Under the pieces are notes generated by a model. It had not been told where the DNA came from and made no database searches. It saw only the letters and a list, made by a program, of their open reading frames with translations. From sequence record PZ445443.1: a DNA stretch of 64,000 nucleotides; one strand, given 5' to 3'. Both the position numbers and the translations under genes were made by a program. This document shows, piece after piece, positions 14,820 through 57,238 of this stretch (position 1 is the first letter of the stretch; every line of letters starts with the position of its first letter). Source of the stretch: a phage.

Positions 14820-14993
14820 ACTTTACTTAAAATCTTTGTCACCTATTACGATTGCACGAATCCACTCATTGTGATGTTCAATGGCGGCAAGGCGTAACAT
14901 AATGCAGTGATTGTCATTACTAAACACGGTGCGGTAAGCTTTAGCAGCACCATGATATAACTTCCACATCAGGTAATGATATCTTCGCCTCAT
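14820..14993 (-). CDS. hypothetical small protein (57 aa, below ORF-track cutoff)
   Basis: ATG with GGAG 9 nt upstream; fills gap between flanking - strand genes. Confidence 0.3.
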
Positions 14994-45384: not shown

Positions 45385-45555
45385 GTGGAGACTAAAATCT
45401 TAATTCTTGCTGTGGTAGATACAACCGAAGGAGCTATATTCGAATCTGCAGGAGGGTATTTCTACCTACCATACGGAAAAAGAACTTCCGAGCCAAGTAA
45501 AGATTCAATCCTCAAAGTGTTCCCGTGTGCTTTCTGGCTGGAGATTTTGGTATAA
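45385..45555 (+). CDS. hypothetical small protein (56 aa, below ORF-track cutoff)
   Basis: GTG with strong AGAGAGGAGAG upstream; fills a 250-nt gap. Confidence 0.3.
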   Translation: METKILILAVVDTTEGAIFESAGGYFYLPYGKRTSEPSKDSILKVFPCAFWLEILV

Positions 45556-49096: not shown

Positions 49097-49114
49097 GGCG
49101 GGAAACATCCCGCC
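49097..49114 (+). promoter_or_regulatory. conserved 5' leader hairpin (GGCGGG-loop-CCCGCC)
   Basis: GGCGGGaaacatCCCGCC ~11 nt after the -10 and before the SD; related copies at 49770, 51619, 55721. Confidence 0.45.
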
Positions 49115-49527: not shown

Positions 49528-49530
49528 GCT

Positions 49531-49575
49531 TATTTTTAGATGGCCTTGACTCCAGGGCCATCAATAAAGTAAACT
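49531..49575 (+). promoter_or_regulatory. repeated 45-bp hairpin/promoter element, copy 1
   Basis: TATTTTTAGATGGCCTTGACTCCAGGGCCATCAATAAAGTAAACT; inverted repeat GATGGCC/GGCCATC encloses TTGACT; TAAACT 18 nt downstream as candidate -10. Confidence 0.5.
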
Positions 49576-49608: not shown

Positions 49609-49728
49609 ATGAGTACTACACGCCAACACACAAAGGTAACTATTATCGTTTGCATCATTGGTTACATCCTGGCGCAAATGTTGATGGGTAGCGCCAATGA
49701 TTTCGCAAAATTTTTCTTAAACTTTTAA
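49609..49728 (+). CDS. small hydrophobic protein (39 aa, below ORF-track cutoff)
   Basis: ATG 49609 with AAAAGGGGGG upstream; MSTTRQHTKVTIIVCIIGYILAQMLMGSANDFAKFFLNF; downstream of element copy 1. Confidence 0.4.
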   Translation: MSTTRQHTKVTIIVCIIGYILAQMLMGSANDFAKFFLNF

Positions 49729-49756
49729 TTGACAAGCTAACTTAAATCAGTATAAT
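49729..49756 (+). promoter_or_regulatory. sigma70 consensus promoter
   Basis: TTGACA (49729-49734), 16-nt spacer, TATAAT (49751-49756). Confidence 0.65.
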
Positions 49757-49809
49757 ACTAAGCACATAAACGGGAAAACTTCCCAGAACACACAAAAGGA
49801 GAAAACATT

Positions 49810-50160
49810 ATGAATACTTCCATCACTATGACCACCGAAGAAAAAGCCCTGCAGATCGCCGCTCTGAAAAAACAGATTGCAGAACTGGAAGACAAGATCG
49901 ACAATTTTGAAATCGACGAAGACAAATACGATGATAAATATGATGAATGGTTGGACGAGATCCACGGCGAAATTATGATCGGTTGTATCTCTTTCCTCCC
50001 TTCACGTATCCTTAGGGAGCTGGATCCTATCGCTTACCGTTGCGGCTTTAGCGATTATATTGATAGCCTAGATATTGAAGATGACGAAGAATACCAGGAA
50101 TTGCAGACAGAGCTTGAAGAAGCAAAAGAAGAGCTTGCAGAACTGGAAGAAAACGAGTAA
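49810..50160 (+). CDS. early acidic coiled-coil protein (116 aa)
   Basis: ORF track; RBS AAAGGAGAA; Glu/Asp-rich heptad-like sequence. Confidence 0.55.
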   Translation: MNTSITMTTEEKALQIAALKKQIAELEDKIDNFEIDEDKYDDKYDEWLDEIHGEIMIGCISFLPSRILRELDPIAYRCGFSDYIDSLDIEDDEEYQELQTELEEAKEELAELEENE

Positions 50161-50163
50161 ATT

Positions 50164-50208
50164 TATTTTTAGATGGCCTTGACTCCAGGGCCATCAATAA
50201 AGTAAACT
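50164..50208 (+). promoter_or_regulatory. repeated 45-bp hairpin/promoter element, copy 2
   Basis: Near-identical to copy 1; TTGACT 50179-50184, TAAACT 50203-50208; starts right after upstream stop codon. Confidence 0.5.
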
Positions 50209-50249
50209 TTACACTGTTAACACTGAACTAATACAGAGGAGTTAAAACC

Positions 50250-50495
50250 ATGGCAGCACTAATCACCAAATATTATGCCCCTACCAACACCAAAAGCGCC
50301 CGTATCATGGTAAAAGGCTTCGGACGTAAAAAGGTTTACACCTGGGATTATTCCCTAGACATGGAAGACAACTACACCAACGCAATGACCGATTTTATTA
50401 ATGAACTAAATAAGCAGATCTTGACAAGTTATAAAGTGACAGATATTGCTTATATAGGTGAAGGCGGGATCTGTTTTGTGGGCATTGTGAAATAG
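50250..50495 (+). CDS. early small protein (81 aa)
   Basis: ORF track; RBS AGAGGAG. Confidence 0.55.
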   Translation: MAALITKYYAPTNTKSARIMVKGFGRKKVYTWDYSLDMEDNYTNAMTDFINELNKQILTSYKVTDIAYIGEGGICFVGIVK

Positions 50496-50496
50496 T

Positions 50497-50540
50497 TATT
50501 TTTTCGGTGGTCCTGGCTGCAGGGCCATCTATAAAGATAA
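50497..50540 (+). promoter_or_regulatory. degenerate copy of the hairpin/promoter element
   Basis: TTTTCGGTGGTCCTGGCTGCAGGGCCATCTATAAAG: keeps the GGGCCATC arm and A/T-rich 3' part but lacks TTGACT. Confidence 0.3.
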
Positions 50541-50569
50541 TTTATTAACACCATGAAAGGAGAAAGTAC

Positions 50570-50923
50570 ATGATCAGCGGGGCTAGTTTTATTATTGGCG
50601 CTATTGCTACGGCTTTAATTGTAAACAAGATCCAGGATAAAAAGGAAAGAGGAAGTACCGCCCTTGCAGAATATCCATTTTGGACATTTAACGATAACGA
50701 AGATTATATTATAAAGTATAAAAATAAAGAGGGTGACCAAGTAACACCGCGACCGATCCCAGCTTACAAGATGCAGGAAACACTATACCGCCTGGAGGCG
50801 GGGGGCGCAAAAATTGTAGACTTTTGGGGATACGACCACACAGATCAGGAAGTTATAAAGCGCCGTATCCGGGCTATTCAGGCCAATATTGAAGTTAGCA
50901 AGGGGGGAATATATGAAAATTAA
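50570..50923 (+). CDS. early membrane-anchored protein (117 aa)
   Basis: ORF track; RBS AAAGGAGAAAG; N-terminal hydrophobic helix ISGASFIIGAIATALIV. Confidence 0.5.
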   Translation: MISGASFIIGAIATALIVNKIQDKKERGSTALAEYPFWTFNDNEDYIIKYKNKEGDQVTPRPIPAYKMQETLYRLEAGGAKIVDFWGYDHTDQEVIKRRIRAIQANIEVSKGGIYEN

Positions 50924-51110
50924 TTTCGAGAAAATTGTAAAGCGCCCTCATGATTCCGAAGAGCTGCCAGAACGCCGCCAGCGTAACAATAAACTGAATA
51001 AGCCAAAAAGGTTTGGGAAGATCTGGCGTAATCATTATGATCGTAAATTGCCCGGCCTACTTTTGGAGCGTGAACGACAGGCAGAACGATACCGCCATAA
51101 AGACAAATAA
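50913..51110 (+). CDS. early basic small protein (65 aa)
   Basis: ATG 50913 with AAGGGGGG upstream; Arg/Lys-rich. Confidence 0.45.
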   Translation: MKINFEKIVKRPHDSEELPERRQRNNKLNKPKRFGKIWRNHYDRKLPGLLLERERQAERYRHKDK

Positions 51111-51116
51111 CAACCA

Positions 51117-51146
51117 ACGCCCAGCCATTGTGCGGGGCTTTTTATT
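51117..51146 (+). terminator. putative terminator (short stem + T-tract)
   Basis: GCCC...GGGC short stem followed by TTTTTATTTC. Confidence 0.35.
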
Positions 51147-51268
51147 TCTATCCTACGAATAGCGCCCCTGGTTGGCCCTGTAAGCGCCAAAAAGGCCCCC
51201 ACCTATGCAATCGCCCCCTTTAACCTGAAAACATCGCCCAGGGCCGTTTCATGGCGTTAAAAATATCA

Positions 51269-51296
51269 TTGACATCGTCAACAGGTTAGCTATACT
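51269..51296 (+). promoter_or_regulatory. sigma70-type promoter
   Basis: TTGACA (51269-51274), 16-nt spacer, TATACT (51291-51296). Confidence 0.6.
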
Positions 51297-51328
51297 AACC
51301 ACATCAAAGAGAGAAAGGAGTAAACGCC

Positions 51329-51601
51329 ATGCGTAAATTAAAAAATTTTGATAAAGTTGATGTTATCCTGAATAATTTTTACTACTGCAACAACAAGGCT
51401 ATTTGGTGGCGTGATAGTTCCACCGATAAAGTCAGGGCGCGCTTTCTTCAGGGGCACTGGCAAGGCCGCCCGGTGATTAAAATCATGGGGCAATTGGTAG
51501 CGTTTAAAAATTGCCGCCGTGTTGATGACGTTGAGGAGATTTTAAACATTTTGCGCCACAATAATTTAAAAAAAATAGTGTTGACAAGTAAGCCTCAATA
51601 A
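51329..51601 (+). CDS. early protein (90 aa)
   Basis: ORF track; RBS AAAGGAG. Confidence 0.5.
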   Translation: MRKLKNFDKVDVILNNFYYCNNKAIWWRDSSTDKVRARFLQGHWQGRPVIKIMGQLVAFKNCRRVDDVEEILNILRHNNLKKIVLTSKPQ

Positions 51602-51609
51602 GTATACTT
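51581..51609 (+). promoter_or_regulatory. sigma70-type promoter (overlaps 3' end of upstream gene)
   Basis: TTGACA (51581-51586), 17-nt spacer, TATACT (51604-51609); followed by leader hairpin GGCGGGaaaactTCCCGCC (51619-51637). Confidence 0.6.
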
Positions 51610-51665
51610 AAACACACAGGCGGGAAAACTTCCCGCCACTAACAAAGAAAATAGGAGAAAATATC

Positions 51666-52289
51666 ATGACCACCGTTAACATTACCGCAGGTTACAATTT
51701 ATCTTTCGACGTGCTGACCGACGAACAAAAAGAAAAAGCCGTTGAAATGGTCCGCGAAAGAGAAGAACACAGCGGGGATAACTTTTTTGCAGAAAGTGTA
51801 ATTGAATACTATAAAGAATATGTTTTTCCAGAGTATGGCCTTGAAGATACCGAAGTACATTGGTCAGGCTTTTGGTGCCAGGGTGACGGCGCGTCAATCA
51901 GTGCTGAAAACGTGGATTTAGAAAAATTTTTGCGTAAAGTAAAGGCCCTGACCAAGTTCCGATCAATTCGTCACTTGTTCGGCACAATGCACGATGGCGA
52001 GTTATCAGCCAGTGTTGAACGCGACAAGTACAGCCATTACAGCCATGAAAACACTGTAAGCGGGTACATTGATACCACTTGGCTAGATCTGACCGCCAAA
52101 CAAGAAAACAAAGTTGAAGAGCTGGAAGAGCTGATCACCGAGACGGTACGGGAGCTATCCCGCAAGGTTTACGTAGACCTGGAGGAGGCCTATCTTGAAC
52201 AGTTTACTACCGAAAACCTGATCGGCCTTATTGAAGCCAATGATTGGCGGTTTGATGTGGATGAATATGGGGAGATGAGTTTTTCATAA
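51666..52289 (+). CDS. early protein (207 aa)
   Basis: ORF track; RBS AGGAGAA. Confidence 0.55.
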   Translation: MTTVNITAGYNLSFDVLTDEQKEKAVEMVREREEHSGDNFFAESVIEYYKEYVFPEYGLEDTEVHWSGFWCQGDGASISAENVDLEKFLRKVKALTKFRSIRHLFGTMHDGELSASVERDKYSHYSHENTVSGYIDTTWLDLTAKQENKVEELEELITETVRELSRKVYVDLEEAYLEQFTTENLIGLIEANDWRFDVDEYGEMSFS

Positions 52290-52297
52290 ATAAAGTG

Positions 52298-52325
52298 TTG
52301 CAATAATCTAAAAACCTGCTATATT
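52298..52325 (+). promoter_or_regulatory. sigma70-like promoter
   Basis: TTGCAA (52298-52303), 16-nt spacer, TATATT (52320-52325). Confidence 0.45.
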
Positions 52326-52378
52326 AAAACTCAAGGGGCGAGATGACTTGCCCCACACAAAACAAAGAGGATAACATC

Positions 52379-52759
52379 ATGAAAAACACCACCAAGGCCA
52401 TTGACACCGTTATGTTTAACCTGGTTACATTCCGTGAAGATATGAAAGATCTTCCACGTGAAACAGTGTGCGACCATATCGAAAACTATCGCAAACTTAT
52501 TAAAGAATTGCCATTGAAACGAGATCAGTACGCGGCTAACGCCATGCTTAACGCCATGATCAAAAAGATGATTCAGTGTGATTTAACTCTGGCCTATGAT
52601 TATGCAGGTGGTCGTTTTGCAGTATACAATCAGCCCGTGCCTGGTATGAGCACCACCGAAGAATTGCACGCGCTCAATCTAAAACAAGATGTGTGGGATA
52701 GTATGCCCCGCGTGGTGGTATGGGTAGAAAGCGGAAAGATTTACGGCGATAATTTTTAA
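52379..52759 (+). CDS. early protein (126 aa)
   Basis: ATG 52379 with AAGAGGA upstream (track start 52343 lacks RBS). Confidence 0.5.
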   Translation: MKNTTKAIDTVMFNLVTFREDMKDLPRETVCDHIENYRKLIKELPLKRDQYAANAMLNAMIKKMIQCDLTLAYDYAGGRFAVYNQPVPGMSTTEELHALNLKQDVWDSMPRVVVWVESGKIYGDNF

Positions 52760-52770
52760 TCAGGTAACAG

Positions 52771-52798
52771 GCGGCGGCATATTTGCCGCCTTATTGTT
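52771..52798 (+). terminator. rho-independent terminator
   Basis: GGCGGC-atattt-GCCGCC followed by TTATTGTT. Confidence 0.55.
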
Positions 52799-52826
52799 AA
52801 TCAGAACTGTAAAAGAGGTACATAGA

Positions 52827-53198
52827 ATGGAATTTATCATTTTGGCTATATTAGTTGCCTTGTTTAACGCCTGGATCGCTGGCAAGATGGGTAGATCCGC
52901 CTTTTTATGGTTTATTATATCTATCTTCCTGGGAGTGGTTGCAACTATTGTATTGGTTATCCTTGCAATTGTTGACAAGGGGAATAATAGAAAGGGTAAA
53001 GTATTTTCAGACCTGTACGACGCTCAAACGTTTGTCAACGCCTATTATAGTGATCTTCCAGTCTCCCTACGTTGCAGCCTTGCACAACAGGTTTTCGATG
53101 AAGCTAAAACCAGAGATCACGCCCATGAGATTTGTTTAACTGAGGCGGATCGCCTATTTGAGAGGAATAGAAAATATGTGGACCAGCCGTTTAAATAA
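52827..53198 (+). CDS. early membrane protein (123 aa, two predicted TM helices)
   Basis: ATG 52827 with AAGAGG upstream; MEFIILAILVALFNAWIAG...FLWFIISIFLGVVATIVLVILAIV. Confidence 0.5.
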   Translation: MEFIILAILVALFNAWIAGKMGRSAFLWFIISIFLGVVATIVLVILAIVDKGNNRKGKVFSDLYDAQTFVNAYYSDLPVSLRCSLAQQVFDEAKTRDHAHEICLTEADRLFERNRKYVDQPFK

Positions 53199-53397
53199 TG
53201 CCACGTTAATTAACCCCTTTAGTGAAGATTTGAAGCCAGCCGCCTGGCGTGATGGATTCAATAACGAAAGCTTTATTTTCAGGCCTGATCTTAAGGAATT
53301 TTATAACAATGGATCGAACAACGACAGAGATAATTTTTCTTGTAATGTGCGTGGTGATAATACTCCTGGGGGCCATTGCAAACCACGTCACTGCTAA
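53176..53397 (+). CDS. hypothetical small protein (73 aa); frame choice uncertain
   Basis: ATG 53176 with GAGAGGAA upstream; competes with overlapping ORF 53249..53434 in another frame. Confidence 0.3.
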   Translation: MWTSRLNNATLINPFSEDLKPAAWRDGFNNESFIFRPDLKEFYNNGSNNDRDNFSCNVRGDNTPGGHCKPRHC

Positions 53398-53417
53398 CAG
53401 GAGGGAAGGGGGAGACG

Positions 53418-53537
53418 ATGACACCCAAGGATAAGCCCCGCACCGATAAGGCGCGCCGTGTTATGGTATGGCTTGAGATCATCGCCCTTGAAATATTGTT
53501 AGGCGTAGGGATGTATTTTATCGCTGTAAGTAACTGA
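53418..53537 (+). CDS. small hydrophobic protein (39 aa, below ORF-track cutoff)
   Basis: ATG 53418 with GGAGGGAAGGGGGAG upstream; MTPKDKPRTDKARRVMVWLEIIALEILLGVGMYFIAVSN; followed by terminator. Confidence 0.4.
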   Translation: MTPKDKPRTDKARRVMVWLEIIALEILLGVGMYFIAVSN

Positions 53538-53541
53538 TAAC

Positions 53542-53581
53542 GGCCCCCGATCCCTGGGGGCCTAACTTTTTAATTTTTTTT
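53542..53581 (+). terminator. rho-independent terminator
   Basis: GGCCCCC-gatccct-GGGGGCC followed by TAACTTTTTAATTTTTTTT. Confidence 0.6.
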
Positions 53582-53679
53582 CTCCCTGGGTGTTGCAATC
53601 CGATCCAGAATATGGATAATAACAATCAACGGGGAGACACTCCCCACCGCACAGACAAAGTTCCAAAAGGAGAAACAAA

Positions 53680-53880
53680 ATGAGCAATAATATCCGCGTT
53701 ATTAACTTCAAAAAAGAAGAAAAAATTGCTGTACTGGTTGATGGTCAAGAAATCTTCAAGGGCGATTATGAAGATCATCAAACGGCGATTAGTATCACTC
53801 GCGTGATTGGTTACCATAATTTCTACCCCCAAGGCGCTGAGGCAGCAGTTAAACGAATCAAAGAGATTGTAGGCCTGTAA
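53680..53880 (+). CDS. early small protein (66 aa)
   Basis: ORF track; RBS AAAAGGAGAAA. Confidence 0.55.
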   Translation: MSNNIRVINFKKEEKIAVLVDGQEIFKGDYEDHQTAISITRVIGYHNFYPQGAEAAVKRIKEIVGL

Positions 53881-53884
53881 AATT

Positions 53885-53929
53885 TATTTTTAGATGGCCT
53901 TGACTCCAGGGCCATCAATAAAGTAAATT
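53885..53929 (+). promoter_or_regulatory. repeated 45-bp hairpin/promoter element, copy 3
   Basis: TATTTTTAGATGGCCTTGACTCCAGGGCCATCAATAAAGTAAATT; TTGACT 53900-53905, TAAATT 53924-53929; starts right after upstream stop. Confidence 0.5.
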
Positions 53930-53964
53930 TAAACCCTGTTAAAATACCACGCAGTTAACAAGGA

Positions 53965-54273
53965 GTGATAGACATGTTTATCCAGGCTAATAATCTTTAT
54001 TTCTTTGATGGTCAGATCGTAGATGGTGTGGAAGTGGAGATCACCGGGTGCCCTGGCGGTCAGGCTATGACTTTCCGGAATAATGCCTTTGATGATTCTC
54101 ATATCGTTATGAAAATGGAAGTTACGAAGCTGGACGACAAGAAAGCACTCATTGACTATTCTGTGAAAGATCATCCAGACTACCACATGATCTATGGTGA
54201 TTTGTGCATTGTTGACCGTGACAAGGTAGGCGGCATTGTGATCGCTATTGTGAACGATGTTTTCTCAAACTAA
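53965..54273 (+). CDS. early protein (102 aa)
   Basis: ORF track; RBS AAGGAG. Confidence 0.55.
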   Translation: MIDMFIQANNLYFFDGQIVDGVEVEITGCPGGQAMTFRNNAFDDSHIVMKMEVTKLDDKKALIDYSVKDHPDYHMIYGDLCIVDRDKVGGIVIAIVNDVFSN

Positions 54274-54290
54274 TTTCAGCAGGTGATTTT

Positions 54291-54641
54291 ATGAAAGTCA
54301 AACTATATTACCTTAATGAGCTTAACCCCCTTGCCCAGGTCCGCGCCCTGGCTAATACCTTGATTTGTGAGAAATCTGTATATTGTGTTGAGCTTAACGC
54401 CATGCGTGAACGTCTCAAAGGTGGTTACTTTGACATCCATGCTGCAATCAACGGCCTGAATATGGAATTTATACGCCTACGTAACAGCCGCCGGAATCTG
54501 GCAAGAATGGAACAAGATCCGGCCCACCTTCGTAAACTGGTTATTGAAAATCATCTGATGTTCAATGCCGAGGGTGATTATTACCATTTTAACCGCAAAC
54601 GTTGGTACCGTGGCGGCAATACAGACAAGGATGCAAAATAA
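54291..54641 (+). CDS. early protein (116 aa)
   Basis: ORF track; weak RBS. Confidence 0.5.
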   Translation: MKVKLYYLNELNPLAQVRALANTLICEKSVYCVELNAMRERLKGGYFDIHAAINGLNMEFIRLRNSRRNLARMEQDPAHLRKLVIENHLMFNAEGDYYHFNRKRWYRGGNTDKDAK

Positions 54642-54677
54642 GGCCCCTAGCAGGGCCTGCAGCGATATAATCACATA

Positions 54678-54711
54678 AAGGCCATGCAACCGCATGGCCT
54701 TTATTATTTTG
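54678..54711 (+). terminator. rho-independent terminator
   Basis: GGCCATGC-aacc-GCATGGCC followed by TTTATTATTTT; a second hairpin AGGCCC...GGGCCT lies just upstream. Confidence 0.6.
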
Positions 54712-54758
54712 GCGTTACAACGGCATACGGAGCGCTTAAAAATTTTTTAAATAAGTAC

Positions 54759-54787
54759 TTGCATCATGTCCGACAATATGGATAATA
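54759..54787 (+). promoter_or_regulatory. sigma70-like promoter
   Basis: TTGCAT, 17-nt spacer, ATAATA. Confidence 0.4.
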
Positions 54788-54845
54788 AGAGTTGTCGAAG
54801 GGGCTATGCCTCCAATCATTAACCGGATAGATAGGAGTTAAAATC

Positions 54846-55130
54846 ATGGCTATTGTTACCGCTGGTGATGTAGTAGAAATGGAAGCAAAATACTTAAAAA
54901 CTGGTATGCATATCCTACGCAACGATCTTGAACTGGTCCTGACAATGGTTGACTATAACCCAGGGCAAGATTATCCAAGTGTTGACTACTTTTTTGAGTA
55001 TGTCGATGAAGAGCTAAAAGAGGATGAGGCCTACTGCGGAGAATTCTGCAACTACTTTTGCCCTGACGAGGTTGTAAAAGTTATCTACCAACCTGGCGTA
55101 CCTTTCCCGCTACACGCTATCAATAAATAA
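54846..55130 (+). CDS. early protein (94 aa)
   Basis: ORF track; RBS TAGGAG. Confidence 0.55.
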   Translation: MAIVTAGDVVEMEAKYLKTGMHILRNDLELVLTMVDYNPGQDYPSVDYFFEYVDEELKEDEAYCGEFCNYFCPDEVVKVIYQPGVPFPLHAINK

Positions 55131-55185
55131 ACCTGGCGGGGCCGAAAAGGCCCCCAATTATGAAAATAAAGAGAGGCAAATCATC

Positions 55186-55419
55186 ATGATGGAACAAATT
55201 AAACGCGCCGAGGCTATTAATGGCAACGTGATCTATTTTGTCAGCAAAAACGAAAAAGGCGTACCCTATGCGGCGGTAATAGTACAGCCTGACGGCGATT
55301 ATTGGTGCACTGTGTACGGCGCTTATTCTTTTGGGCGTCCAGTGCATGATAAAATTTTGAAAGTAGCGAACCCTACCGGGAAAAATATCACAGCAGAAAA
55401 ATTTTTTGAAAATAGTTGA
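55186..55419 (+). CDS. early small protein (77 aa)
   Basis: ORF track; RBS AGAGAGG. Confidence 0.5.
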   Translation: MMEQIKRAEAINGNVIYFVSKNEKGVPYAAVIVQPDGDYWCTVYGAYSFGRPVHDKILKVANPTGKNITAEKFFENS

Positions 55420-55443
55420 CACGACCATATAAGACTGTAGTAT
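55416..55443 (+). promoter_or_regulatory. sigma70-like promoter
   Basis: TTGACA (55416-55421), 16-nt spacer, TAGTAT. Confidence 0.5.
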
Positions 55444-55496
55444 ATAAATCAAAGGGGGGCAACAAGCCCCACCAACCACAAAGAGGATAAAAAATC

Positions 55497-55676
55497 ATGG
55501 CTATTATTGCAAAGACTGAGATCGTAGGCTTAGATTCTATTCTTCTCGCATATGAGGAAGCTATAGAAATGTATGTGGTTTCCTATGGTGAATATATCCG
55601 TGAATATAAATCTATTGATCTAGCTTTTGAATGTTATATTCGCCAGGTCAATAAAGCATATGATGATTATCGTTAA
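55497..55676 (+). CDS. early small protein (59 aa, below ORF-track cutoff)
   Basis: ATG 55497 with AAGAGGA upstream; promoter and GC hairpin in leader. Confidence 0.45.
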   Translation: MAIIAKTEIVGLDSILLAYEEAIEMYVVSYGEYIREYKSIDLAFECYIRQVNKAYDDYR

Positions 55677-55682
55677 AATAGT

Positions 55683-55710
55683 TTGACAACAGTCAACAAT
55701 CTGGTAAAGT
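55683..55710 (+). promoter_or_regulatory. sigma70-like promoter
   Basis: TTGACA (55683-55688), 16-nt spacer, TAAAGT; followed by leader hairpin GCGGGAatactTCCCGC (55721-55740). Confidence 0.45.
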
Positions 55711-55758
55711 GTACTACATAGCGCGGGAATACTTCCCGCCATTAATGAGGATAATTTA

Positions 55759-55896
55759 ATGAAAACTTTCAACGCAACAGTCTCGACAATTGGTTATATT
55801 ATTACAGTACAAGCCGTGGATCTGGTAGCAGCAGCAAACAAGATTAAAAAGATGATTCCGCCAGGCAGTGAATTTTCCGTTTGGAAAGTAAAATAA
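55759..55896 (+). CDS. early small protein (45 aa, below ORF-track cutoff)
   Basis: ATG 55759 with GAGGA upstream; MKTFNATVSTIGYIITVQAVDLVAAANKIKKMIPPGSEFSVWKVK. Confidence 0.4.
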   Translation: MKTFNATVSTIGYIITVQAVDLVAAANKIKKMIPPGSEFSVWKVK

Positions 55897-55899
55897 ATC

Positions 55900-55927
55900 T
55901 TGACAATAGTTTATTACTTGATAGACT
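55900..55927 (+). promoter_or_regulatory. sigma70-like promoter
   Basis: TTGACA (55900-55905), 16-nt spacer, TAGACT. Confidence 0.5.
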
Positions 55928-56094
55928 GTATTTCGTAGGGCGGGGCAATAAGGCAACGCCCATTAATGATGGTAGAATCATGTTAGATAAAATTTTCACG
56001 GTTGTAGTAGTTGGCCTGGCATTATAGGTTGGAGTGGTTGCAACTATGGCTAACATGATCCTATCTTCCCATGGTATCGGTTAAGGTGAATCAA

Positions 56095-56310
56095 ATGATC
56101 ACGAATAAGACAGGTAAAACGGAATTCTTGCGCGGCTTGCAGATCGGCAAGCCAGAGATCTGGTATTGCACTAAAACACCACGTGACGAAATGAAAGACT
56201 TCACCGCCACGCTGCAACGGGTAAAGATATCCATCACGCAGAAAAAGGCCTTGATAGTGGTGGAAGGTGAGATCCCTCAAACCGTTGTTATAGTTGAGCG
56301 TACAGCATAG
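56095..56310 (+). CDS. early small protein (71 aa)
   Basis: ATG 56095 with AAGGTG upstream (track start 56071 lacks RBS). Confidence 0.45.
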   Translation: MITNKTGKTEFLRGLQIGKPEIWYCTKTPRDEMKDFTATLQRVKISITQKKALIVVEGEIPQTVVIVERTA

Positions 56311-56401
56311 TTTAATTTATAGCGATACCTGAAAATTAACCAATAAATCATAAACAGGCGGTTACCGCCGCCTTAAACGTAGCAGAAAGAGGCTAGACAC
56401 A

Positions 56402-56686
56402 ATGAAAAAGATGATCGCAGTAGTTGCCCTGGTTGTTGGACTTAATGCACCTGTAATGGCTAAAGAGCTGGCAAAAGAGGTTAATCTAACGGATATCCAT
56501 GCCGTCAATCAAATCGGGGTTACTTATCGCTTATGCCTTGCCGCTAAAACTTTTAATGACGGTACAACAGAGTACTACGGATTCGAAGGTATCCGGTGCG
56601 GTGAGCTTGCTCGCGACCTTAAGGAAGATCCAGACCTGGAAGATCTGCCCATCACCGTAAACGGTAAAGCTTACGTAAACCGTTAA
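56402..56686 (+). CDS. early secreted/periplasmic protein (94 aa) with cleavable signal peptide
   Basis: MKKMIAVVALVVGLNAPVMA-KE signal peptide without lipobox Cys; RBS AAGAGG. Confidence 0.6.
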   Translation: MKKMIAVVALVVGLNAPVMAKELAKEVNLTDIHAVNQIGVTYRLCLAAKTFNDGTTEYYGFEGIRCGELARDLKEDPDLEDLPITVNGKAYVNR

Positions 56687-56688
56687 CC

Positions 56689-56823
56689 ATGAGAAAGATA
56701 ATCATCACCTTGGGGATTGTGGCGGGATCGCTGGCGCTCTTTCCCCTTATGGTTAGGTATGTGCTGATCAGTATTGTCCTGGTAGTCAGTGATCTATTGG
56801 AAACGGTTGGCACCTTGTTTTAA
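56689..56823 (+). CDS. small hydrophobic protein (44 aa, below ORF-track cutoff)
   Basis: ATG 56689 2 nt after upstream stop (coupling); MRKIIITLGIVAGSLALFPLMVRYVLISIVLVVSDLLETVGTLF. Confidence 0.35.
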   Translation: MRKIIITLGIVAGSLALFPLMVRYVLISIVLVVSDLLETVGTLF

Positions 56824-57184: not shown

Positions 57185-57238
57185 TTATCTTGAAGGGGCA
57201 AAAGTGCCCACACAACAACCAGGAGAGAGGAAAACACT

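Follow-up and report, generated by a model that had tools for sequence, protein, structure and literature searches.

Sub-60-residue open reading frames with signs of purifying selection in the small-gene array of an rV5-like Escherichia coli phage

Small open reading frames of the array and their conservation

The window analyzed here is a whole stretch of phage DNA of 64,000 nucleotides (nt) (sequence record PZ445443.1), and the elements in question are open reading frames (ORFs) of fewer than 60 amino acids (aa), labeled A to G. An earlier note made from the sequence had located five of them correctly, namely, A (49609 to 49728; 39 aa), B (53418 to 53537; 39 aa), C (55497 to 55676; 59 aa), D (55759 to 55896; 45 aa), and E (56689 to 56823; 44 aa), all on the plus strand. 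Of two further cases, 45385 to 45555 held as a 56-aa plus-strand ORF with a GTG start (F), whereas the one placed at 14820 was 3 nt off, its true limits being 14823 to 14993 on the minus strand (G; 56 aa). The flagged ORFs are very probably true protein-coding genes of an ordinary kind, belonging to the long rightward small-gene array of an rV5-like phage, since their frames are conserved in relatives and synonymous changes prevail over nonsynonymous ones.

Judged by its sequence, the window belongs to an rV5-like E. coli phage of the genus Vequintavirus. In a megablast comparison of the region from 49.0 to 57.5 kb (250 phage records), the best match was Escherichia phage EdH4, an rV5-like Vequintavirus myovirus, with 95% identity over the full length. 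The phage itself is most likely the BASEL phage DrSchubert (Bas50). Proteins of the window are identical to the products of DrSchubert coding sequences (CDSs) bas50_0046, _0106, _0115, _0116, _0123, _0124, _0125, _0126, and _0127, and in an exact-sequence look-up DrSchubert was the only genome matching the exact sequences of D and of a 48-aa ORF at 55881 to 56027. The corresponding part of the rV5 genome has already been described as containing "88 mainly small ORFs," with sigma-70-like promoters (PMC3606486). About 20 GenBank records in the MG0656xx series, marked UNVERIFIED and named "Campylobacter phage" (C12, C5, A147, D#, etc.), are 92 to 95% identical to the region; they are classified in Vequintavirus, which makes their host labels doubtful.

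Selection on the ORFs was examined in 28 related loci, comprising 22 Vequintavirus loci together with phAPEC8-like and phi92-like loci and two IMG/VR contigs; IMG/VR yielded only four related contigs, and GenBank phage records were used instead. Four further loci were added for ORF G. Synonymous and nonsynonymous changes were counted per codon column over unique sequences and set against the numbers of sites, giving the ratio of nonsynonymous to synonymous change (dN/dS), with p-values that are approximate because the sequences are related to each other. The frame and start codon of every ORF were intact in each examined relative carrying the ORF (for A, 21 of 21 Vequintavirus loci). No stop columns occurred in A to G among 6 to 15 unique sequences per ORF, and ATG was retained, with GTG for E in three loci. 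The dN/dS values were 0.09 for C (p = 1e-10), 0.12 for F (p = 2e-4), 0.22 for D (p = 2e-4), 0.26 for G (p = 3e-5), 0.27 for B (p = 1.2e-3), 0.28 for A (p = 2e-5), and 0.46 for E (p = 1e-3); the transmembrane (TM) part of B reached 0.16 (p = 2.5e-4). For comparison, 15 longer neighbor genes had values of 0.05 to 0.29. The earlier note had proposed this analysis of conservation and synonymous constraint as a check and named a lack of conservation as a ground for rejection; the frames are kept in relatives, with a synonymous excess.

Searches with tblastn against 50,697 phage records extended the distribution, with A being found in 112 records, B in 118, C in 235, D in 54, E in 161, F in 118, and G in 115 (77 to 100% identity for G). 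The matches were full-length throughout, except for those of E, 121 of 161 of which were full-length.

These data bear on whether the flagged ORFs could be chance ORFs or annotation artifacts without a product, which is scarcely credible and is largely refuted by the comparative sequence data. The ORFs are short, A and E are omitted from some records (pangalan, bov22_2, and many others), and gene callers do produce spurious small calls in the region, such as bas50_0124. However, the ORFs are intact in all examined carriers, their purifying selection is significant, and their signals are correct, whereas the test, applied to the same alignments, rejects small ORFs that are truly spurious. Nine doubtful small ORFs, several of which are annotated in some record, had dN/dS values of 0.47 to 1.02 (one being undefined, with two sequences) and mostly contained stops, and none was significant except 57052 (nominal p = 0.012). 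Off-frames and dubious ORFs gave values of 0.5 to 5, with stops. In a six-frame scan of 140 ORFs of at least 20 aa, 59 were testable and 19 passed, all 19 being known genes on the plus strand.

As genes, the flagged ORFs are, on sequence identity, already known as hypothetical proteins of a well-sampled genus, and the implication of the earlier note that they had been overlooked does not hold. A (bas50_0106, rv5_gp188; phrog_16391), B (bas50_0116; phrog_13629), D (bas50_0123; phrog_29854), and E (bas50_0127, rv5_gp165; phrog_16005) are annotated CDSs in DrSchubert, as is G (bas50_0046; phrog_12006), and C (phrog_9374) and F (phrog_15268) are annotated in relatives. The PHROG matches of A to G cover the full protein and the full profile with E-values of 6e-27 to 4e-43, and all of the families have unknown functions. 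The hypothetical proteins of Vequintavirus (rv5_gp188, rv5_gp165, the bas50 CDSs, and the seven PHROGs) are thus the same genes, alike in position and order, with no function attached. All of A to E are annotated CDSs in PMBT16 and MaxBurger, EdH4 has four of them (not E), and other records have various subsets. This annotation is patchy; many of the records sampled leave E uncalled, and about a third leave out A. Only two items are mildly new, a candidate overlapping gene (alt41) and an amber-interrupted ORF (H).

Translation signals and transcriptional organization

The strength of each Shine-Dalgarno (SD) sequence was expressed as the energy of its duplex with the 3' end of 16S rRNA, against a background of 540 candidate ATG, GTG, and TTG starts between 48.0 and 58.5 kb. 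The description of the small ORFs as strongly signaled in the earlier note is borne out for A, B, and F. A has the strongest SD in the region (-11.2 kcal/mol; top 1% of the candidate starts), B has the SD GGAGGGAAGGGGGAG (-10.8 kcal/mol; top 1%), and F is in the top 2% (-9.1 kcal/mol); each of the three is stronger than those of all 20 longer genes considered, the mean of which is -6.9 kcal/mol. In contrast, C (-5.8 kcal/mol) and D (-6.1 kcal/mol) are ordinary, being average for the genes of the region, and E, with no SD (+0.6 kcal/mol), does not fit the description. Among 23 plus-strand ORFs of 30 to 59 aa outside the frames of longer genes, 6 had an SD of -5.8 kcal/mol or better, and all of these 6 except the one at 57204 are conserved and subject to purifying selection, namely, A, B, C, D, and a fifth ORF.

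The region has the early-type look, suggestive of host RNA polymerase, that had been claimed for it. Sigma-70-like sites number 43, versus 23.4 ± 4.1 expected, and those matching at least 10 of 12 positions are all on the plus strand and mostly intergenic. Terminator-like hairpins number 25, versus 10.2 ± 3.1 expected. C, D, and H (34 aa; 55980 to 56084) each form a cassette with their own TTGACA-16-TAnnnT promoter, G+C-rich stem-loop, A/C-rich spacer, and SD, and several longer genes are arranged alike. The promoter and 5' stem-loop preceding C (TTGACA-16-TAGTAT) span 55416 to 55470, and those preceding D (TTGACA-16-TAAAGT) span 55683 to 55741, both on the plus strand. The array would be transcribed from sigma-70-type promoters, with each ORF placed either in such a cassette or in a coupled arrangement like those of its longer neighbors.

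More generally, most strong plus-strand promoters are followed within approximately 10 nt by a G+C-rich stem-loop and then by the A/C-rich spacer and SD. Post-promoter stem-loops on the plus strand lie at 49097 to 49114, 49771 to 49785, 51619 to 51637, 52330 to 52349, 53627 to 53649, 55456 to 55470, 55721 to 55741, 55938 to 55964, and 57196 to 57210. Owing to a preceding A run on the plus strand, several were scored as terminators of the minus strand. The stem-loops could be stabilizers of the mRNA 5' end, blocks to antisense transcription, or both.

ORF A stands between two promoter-like sequences. Upstream, at 49528 to 49575 on the plus strand (score, 9/12), an A/T tract is followed by a 7-bp inverted repeat, GATGGCC/GGCCATC, around a -35-like TTGACT, and then, 18 nt later, by TAAACT. 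A 44-nt element within it, TTATTTTTAGATGGCCTTGACTCCAGGGCCATCAATAAAGTAAA, occurs in three identical copies (49528 to 49571, 50161 to 50204, and 53882 to 53925), each just past a stop codon, the last two being upstream of two accepted longer genes; TAAACT or TAAATT lies 18 nt past the TTGACT of the copies. The element may be a coregulated promoter together with its operator; alternatively, it may form an RNA hairpin in transcripts that read through. The stop codon of A is followed immediately by a promoter with the perfect sigma-70 consensus (TTGACA-16-TATAAT, 12/12), which occupies 49729 to 49756 on the plus strand.

Such arrangements raise the idea that certain of these ORFs serve as regulatory leaders or in coupling, so that their translation and not their peptide matters, for the expression of a neighbor or for mRNA stability. 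A is a tiny single-gene unit between two promoters, E lacks an SD and depends on its upstream gene, and alt41 (53309 to 53434) terminates in the first codons of B and contains the SD of B, all of which would suit such a role. However, the amino acid sequences are conserved (dN/dS of 0.09 to 0.46) and the hydrophobic cores are kept across variants, the perfect promoter between A and the next gene means that translation of A cannot be coupled to that gene, and C has a confidently folded predicted structure. A leader function is therefore very improbable, and the ORFs are better read as genes for their peptides.

The B operon, ORF E with its partner, and the cassettes of H, D, and C

ORF B closes an operon of three genes, the first of which (52827 to 53198) encodes a 123-aa protein with two TM segments; the operon ends at a strong terminator. 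The terminator reported just downstream of B was recovered as the top-scoring one in the region; it is an intrinsic terminator at 53542 to 53562 on the plus strand, with an 8-bp stem containing seven G-C pairs and a T run, and it is annotated in EdH4. B has a basic N-terminal tail and an invariant predicted TM helix with two Glu residues and a GVG motif, a combination typical of helices that pack on another membrane protein.

The annotated middle gene of the operon (53176 to 53397) encodes 73 aa. The candidate ORF alt41 (53309 to 53434, plus strand) lies in another frame, overlaps the 3' third of the 73-aa gene and the first 17 nt of B, and encodes MDRTTTEIIFLVMCVVIILLGAIANHVTANRREGGDDDTQG, a peptide of 41 aa with a strongly hydrophobic core. 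Its frame is stop free in 17 unique relatives, with a dN/dS of 0.47 (p = 0.014). In the 73-aa frame, codons 1 to 44 have a dN/dS of 0.25 (p = 3e-5) and codons 45 to 73 have a dN/dS of 0.83, so that constraint passes from the 73-aa frame to that of alt41 exactly at the alt41 ATG. In the core of alt41, 13 of 18 second codon positions are T (p = 3e-4 versus the regional frequency of T at third positions); although they fall on "silent" third positions of the annotated frame, these T residues are conserved. All relatives keep the ATG of alt41 and, 11 nt upstream of it, a GAGGA or AAGGA motif. Phage Gotham is the only one in which alt41 is annotated, and it has no PHROG. On these sequence patterns, the balance leans slightly toward alt41 being a real additional gene for an overlapping membrane peptide that ends inside B.

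A programmed frameshift joining codons 1 to 44 of the 73-aa gene to alt41 was rejected as the default explanation, with no recognizable slippery site being present; independent initiation is favored because of the conserved ATG with GAGGA 11 nt upstream. Compared with TimP-type small toxic inner-membrane proteins, alt41 scored 14.1 bits (E = 0.04), below the NCBIfam cutoff of 45 bits, and hydrophobic composition accounts for this score. Two lengths occur for the gene upstream of B, 73 aa (with TAA at 53395 to 53397, as in the window) or 81 aa (with CAA, running into an ATGA overlap with B), which agrees with an unconstrained tail. If alt41 is real, the C-terminal tail of the 73-aa protein would be an unconstrained by-product, and the operon would supply three or four consecutive membrane proteins, including the 123-aa two-TM protein, alt41, and B.

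With up to three membrane proteins and a strong terminator at its end, the operon could be taken for a lysis-control module, with B, alt41, and the upstream 123-aa protein acting like a holin and antiholin and not in host takeover, and its first gene is labeled "putative holin" in the BASEL phages MaxBurger and MaxTheCat. However, this label lacks family support, as the function of phrog_13090 is unknown and Pfam gave no holin match. For the B operon as a whole, neither a match to a holin family nor linkage to an endolysin or spanin gene was found, and no endolysin or spanin gene adjoins it. In rV5, the lysin (gp89) and a holin candidate (gp129) are placed elsewhere, and the neighborhood of B lies behind sigma-70-type promoters and not behind the T4-late-like motif reported for late genes (PMC3606486). 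A lysis role is quite unlikely.

ORF E follows a gene for a 94-aa protein with a signal peptide (56402 to 56686, plus strand; bas50_0126; phrog_9845). Its described coupling to this secreted-protein gene was corroborated, with E starting 2 nt past the stop codon of the 94-aa gene in 15 of 19 loci and by an ATGA overlap or a gap of 5 or 10 nt in the others (range, -4 to +10). Translation of E is probably coupled to that of the 94-aa gene. E is almost entirely hydrophobic, and its hydropathy suggests one TM segment or a two-helix hairpin. The 161 records with E include phAPEC8-like phages, and E is absent from LL12, MiataMamis, and A147, which keep the partner gene. Two allelic forms differ in the last nine residues, …SDLLETVGTLF versus …SDLVLYINSLF (L012, L013, L015, and L025 among the relatives). 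The E of the window has no match to Pfam DUF7396 (PF24129), a 46-residue family of unknown function; several E variants align with its positions 3 to 44 of 46 at 13 to 18 bits, below threshold, and the best relative (P0005) reaches 17.7 bits against a gathering threshold of 27 bits.

In V18, a deletion joins E to the C terminus of the downstream 63-aa gene, resulting in a 63-aa chimera. DNA similarity to Phapecoctavirus (approximately 82%; L011, L016, and L017) covers 55183 to 56823 and in many of the records ends precisely with the stop codon of E, and phAPEC8 has an annotated terminator at this boundary. The end of the phAPEC8-like similarity looks like the boundary of a recombination module.

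ORF H (55980 to 56084, plus strand; phrog_14631) encodes a 34-aa hydrophobic membrane peptide in prediction and is annotated in nearly all relatives, with a dN/dS of 0.31. In the window it carries an in-frame TAG at 56025 to 56027 (codon 16), versus a TCG serine codon in 15 of 15 relatives, and H is probably a natural knockout in this phage. In its place, DrSchubert annotates the 48-aa ORF at 55881 to 56027 (bas50_0124), which spans the promoter and hairpin and ends at the TAG. The frame of bas50_0124 has a dN/dS of 0.98 and six stop columns, and it is probably a miscall because it shows no constraint. The segment from D to H carries alternative cassettes. D itself is mosaic, with its 54 records split between Vequintavirus (some genomes only) and Stephanstirmvirinae, and in LL12, Gotham, V18, and further phages other cassettes take its place.

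ORF C is predicted to be acidic and soluble. Its 235 full-length records include Justusliebigvirus, Phapecoctavirus, and jumbo phages, with identities of 73 to 97% for Justusliebigvirus, Phapecoctavirus, and the 350-kb jumbo coliphages (121Q/PBECO4) and of 42% for Klebsiella jumbo phages. Judging from these matches, C has spread among large coliphages into four unrelated groups, jumbo phages included. An AlphaFold model with a predicted local distance difference test (pLDDT) score of 95 shows a sheet of four strands and a helix at the C terminus. The modeled fold is common among uncharacterized phage proteins of approximately 60 aa (RaK2, PBECO4, and phiIBB-PF7A). It also resembles AP2/WGR-like sheet-plus-helix domains, but C is acidic (net charge, -5), unlike DNA-binding AP2, and shares only 6 to 16% sequence identity with the solved structures, the viral matches being all uncharacterized. 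D and the basic G are likewise predicted to be soluble.

Predicted membrane peptides and their possible roles

A, B, and E had been described as hydrophobic, and their Kyte-Doolittle maxima over 19 residues agree with this (2.08, 2.15, and 2.49, respectively). A hydrophobic stretch of approximately 18 residues, sufficient to span the bilayer, is present in A, B, and E as well as in H (2.46) and alt41 (2.7 to 3.1), but not in C (1.41) and D (1.60), which are not membrane-like; a membrane hypothesis does not apply to C and D because they are predicted to be soluble proteins. A has a basic N terminus and a hydrophobic segment at residues 10 to 28, a single-pass arrangement in prediction. We infer by the positive-inside rule that A, B, E, H, and alt41 are inner-membrane microproteins with cytoplasmic N termini, the topology of A and B following from their basic N termini and one hydrophobic helix. 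If this is true and alt41 is a real gene, at least five separately signaled membrane microproteins (A, alt41, B, H, and E) are encoded within 7 kb of an early-type array.

No functional lead came from database searches. In Pfam, NCBIfam, and PHROG scans of all of the small ORFs and ten neighbors, every match was either to a family of unknown function or noise below the threshold, and the matches to Luciferase_N, DUF6524, LPAM_1, DUF7396, TimP, and Mplas lipoprotein were dismissed as such. In a search of 5.8 billion proteins, E had 8 matches, the named ones all being Vequintavirus hypothetical proteins, whereas its 94-aa partner had 42 and C had 33, the named ones all being hypothetical proteins of large coliphages or labeled E. 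coli. Two AlphaFold models and three fold searches likewise provided no functional lead. A PNAS 2026 paper on toxic early products deals with the T5-like phage Bas33, which is another phage.

The membrane peptides would be made from promoters of the host polymerase, probably early in infection, and would most likely use their TM helix to dock onto a larger membrane protein of the host or the phage. This proposal is based on the invariant helix of B with its two buried Glu residues and on the fixed pairing of E with a periplasmic protein. Small inner-membrane regulators that bind larger membrane proteins are familiar from bacteria, including MgrB with PhoQ, AcrZ with AcrB, and SgrT with PtsG. 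Like these, the peptides of the window have 30 to 50 aa, a single hydrophobic helix with a charged tail, and a strong SD on a short ORF; however, there is no sequence relationship, the peptides are phage encoded, and the resemblance is architectural only. The ORFs appear to encode dispensable accessory microproteins, since D and H lie in a mosaic segment, E is missing where its partner is kept, and H is amber interrupted here.

The earlier note had proposed small membrane peptides of early regions, here A, B, and E, as candidates for excluding superinfecting phages or inhibiting membrane processes of the host. On this view, they would resemble T4 Imm and Sp or HK97 gp15 in acting early in infection to stop the entry of DNA or to block an envelope machine of the host. 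T4 Imm and Sp, HK97 gp15, and T5 Llp are small, early membrane or periplasmic effectors of exclusion or of the envelope that are dispensable in the laboratory. Predicted single-pass membrane peptides in a sigma-70-driven array, several known exclusion proteins being small, early, and membrane located, would fit this role, as would an accessory, mosaic distribution, which is typical of exclusion functions, and E with its exported 94-aa partner recalls the membrane/periplasm exclusion pairs. However, the known examples are mostly longer (about 60 to 100 aa), and no homology of any ORF to a known exclusion family, in sequence or profile, was found in Pfam, NCBIfam, and PHROGs. Other roles fit equally well, including inhibitors of division or transport, antidefense factors, lysis timing, and assembly chaperones. 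Superinfection exclusion is a conjecture, one possibility among several with no specific support, and as the particular function of A, B, and E it is unlikely.

Several points weigh against reading the small ORFs as genes for early membrane microproteins and their soluble neighbors. A literature search for ribosome profiling, proteomics, transcriptomics, or functional screens in Vequintavirus found none. Selection on B and E is weaker than that on longer genes and is measured on 12 to 15 unique, mutually related sequences. Part of the signal is also seen in the antisense frame with shared wobble positions, which has no stops in B and E. Hydropathy is the single source of the predicted membrane insertion and topology, and analogy is that of the suggested docking on a larger membrane protein. 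Early timing is read from promoter type, and rV5 has sigma-70-like promoters genome-wide (PMC3606486). Antisense ORFs under B and E were considered and rejected, as no minus-strand ORF passes the six-frame test and the region is organized for the plus strand.

The comparative test gives quantitative support to calls below 60 aa as real genes, some of which public records omit, and the same codon test singles out spurious small calls such as bas50_0124. The result is a list of microprotein targets in the tractable BASEL system, comprising five predicted membrane peptides, among them the amber knockout H and the probable overlapping gene alt41. Should any of the membrane peptides prove to block a host envelope machine or phage entry, it would be a modest, welcome addition to a poorly charted class.

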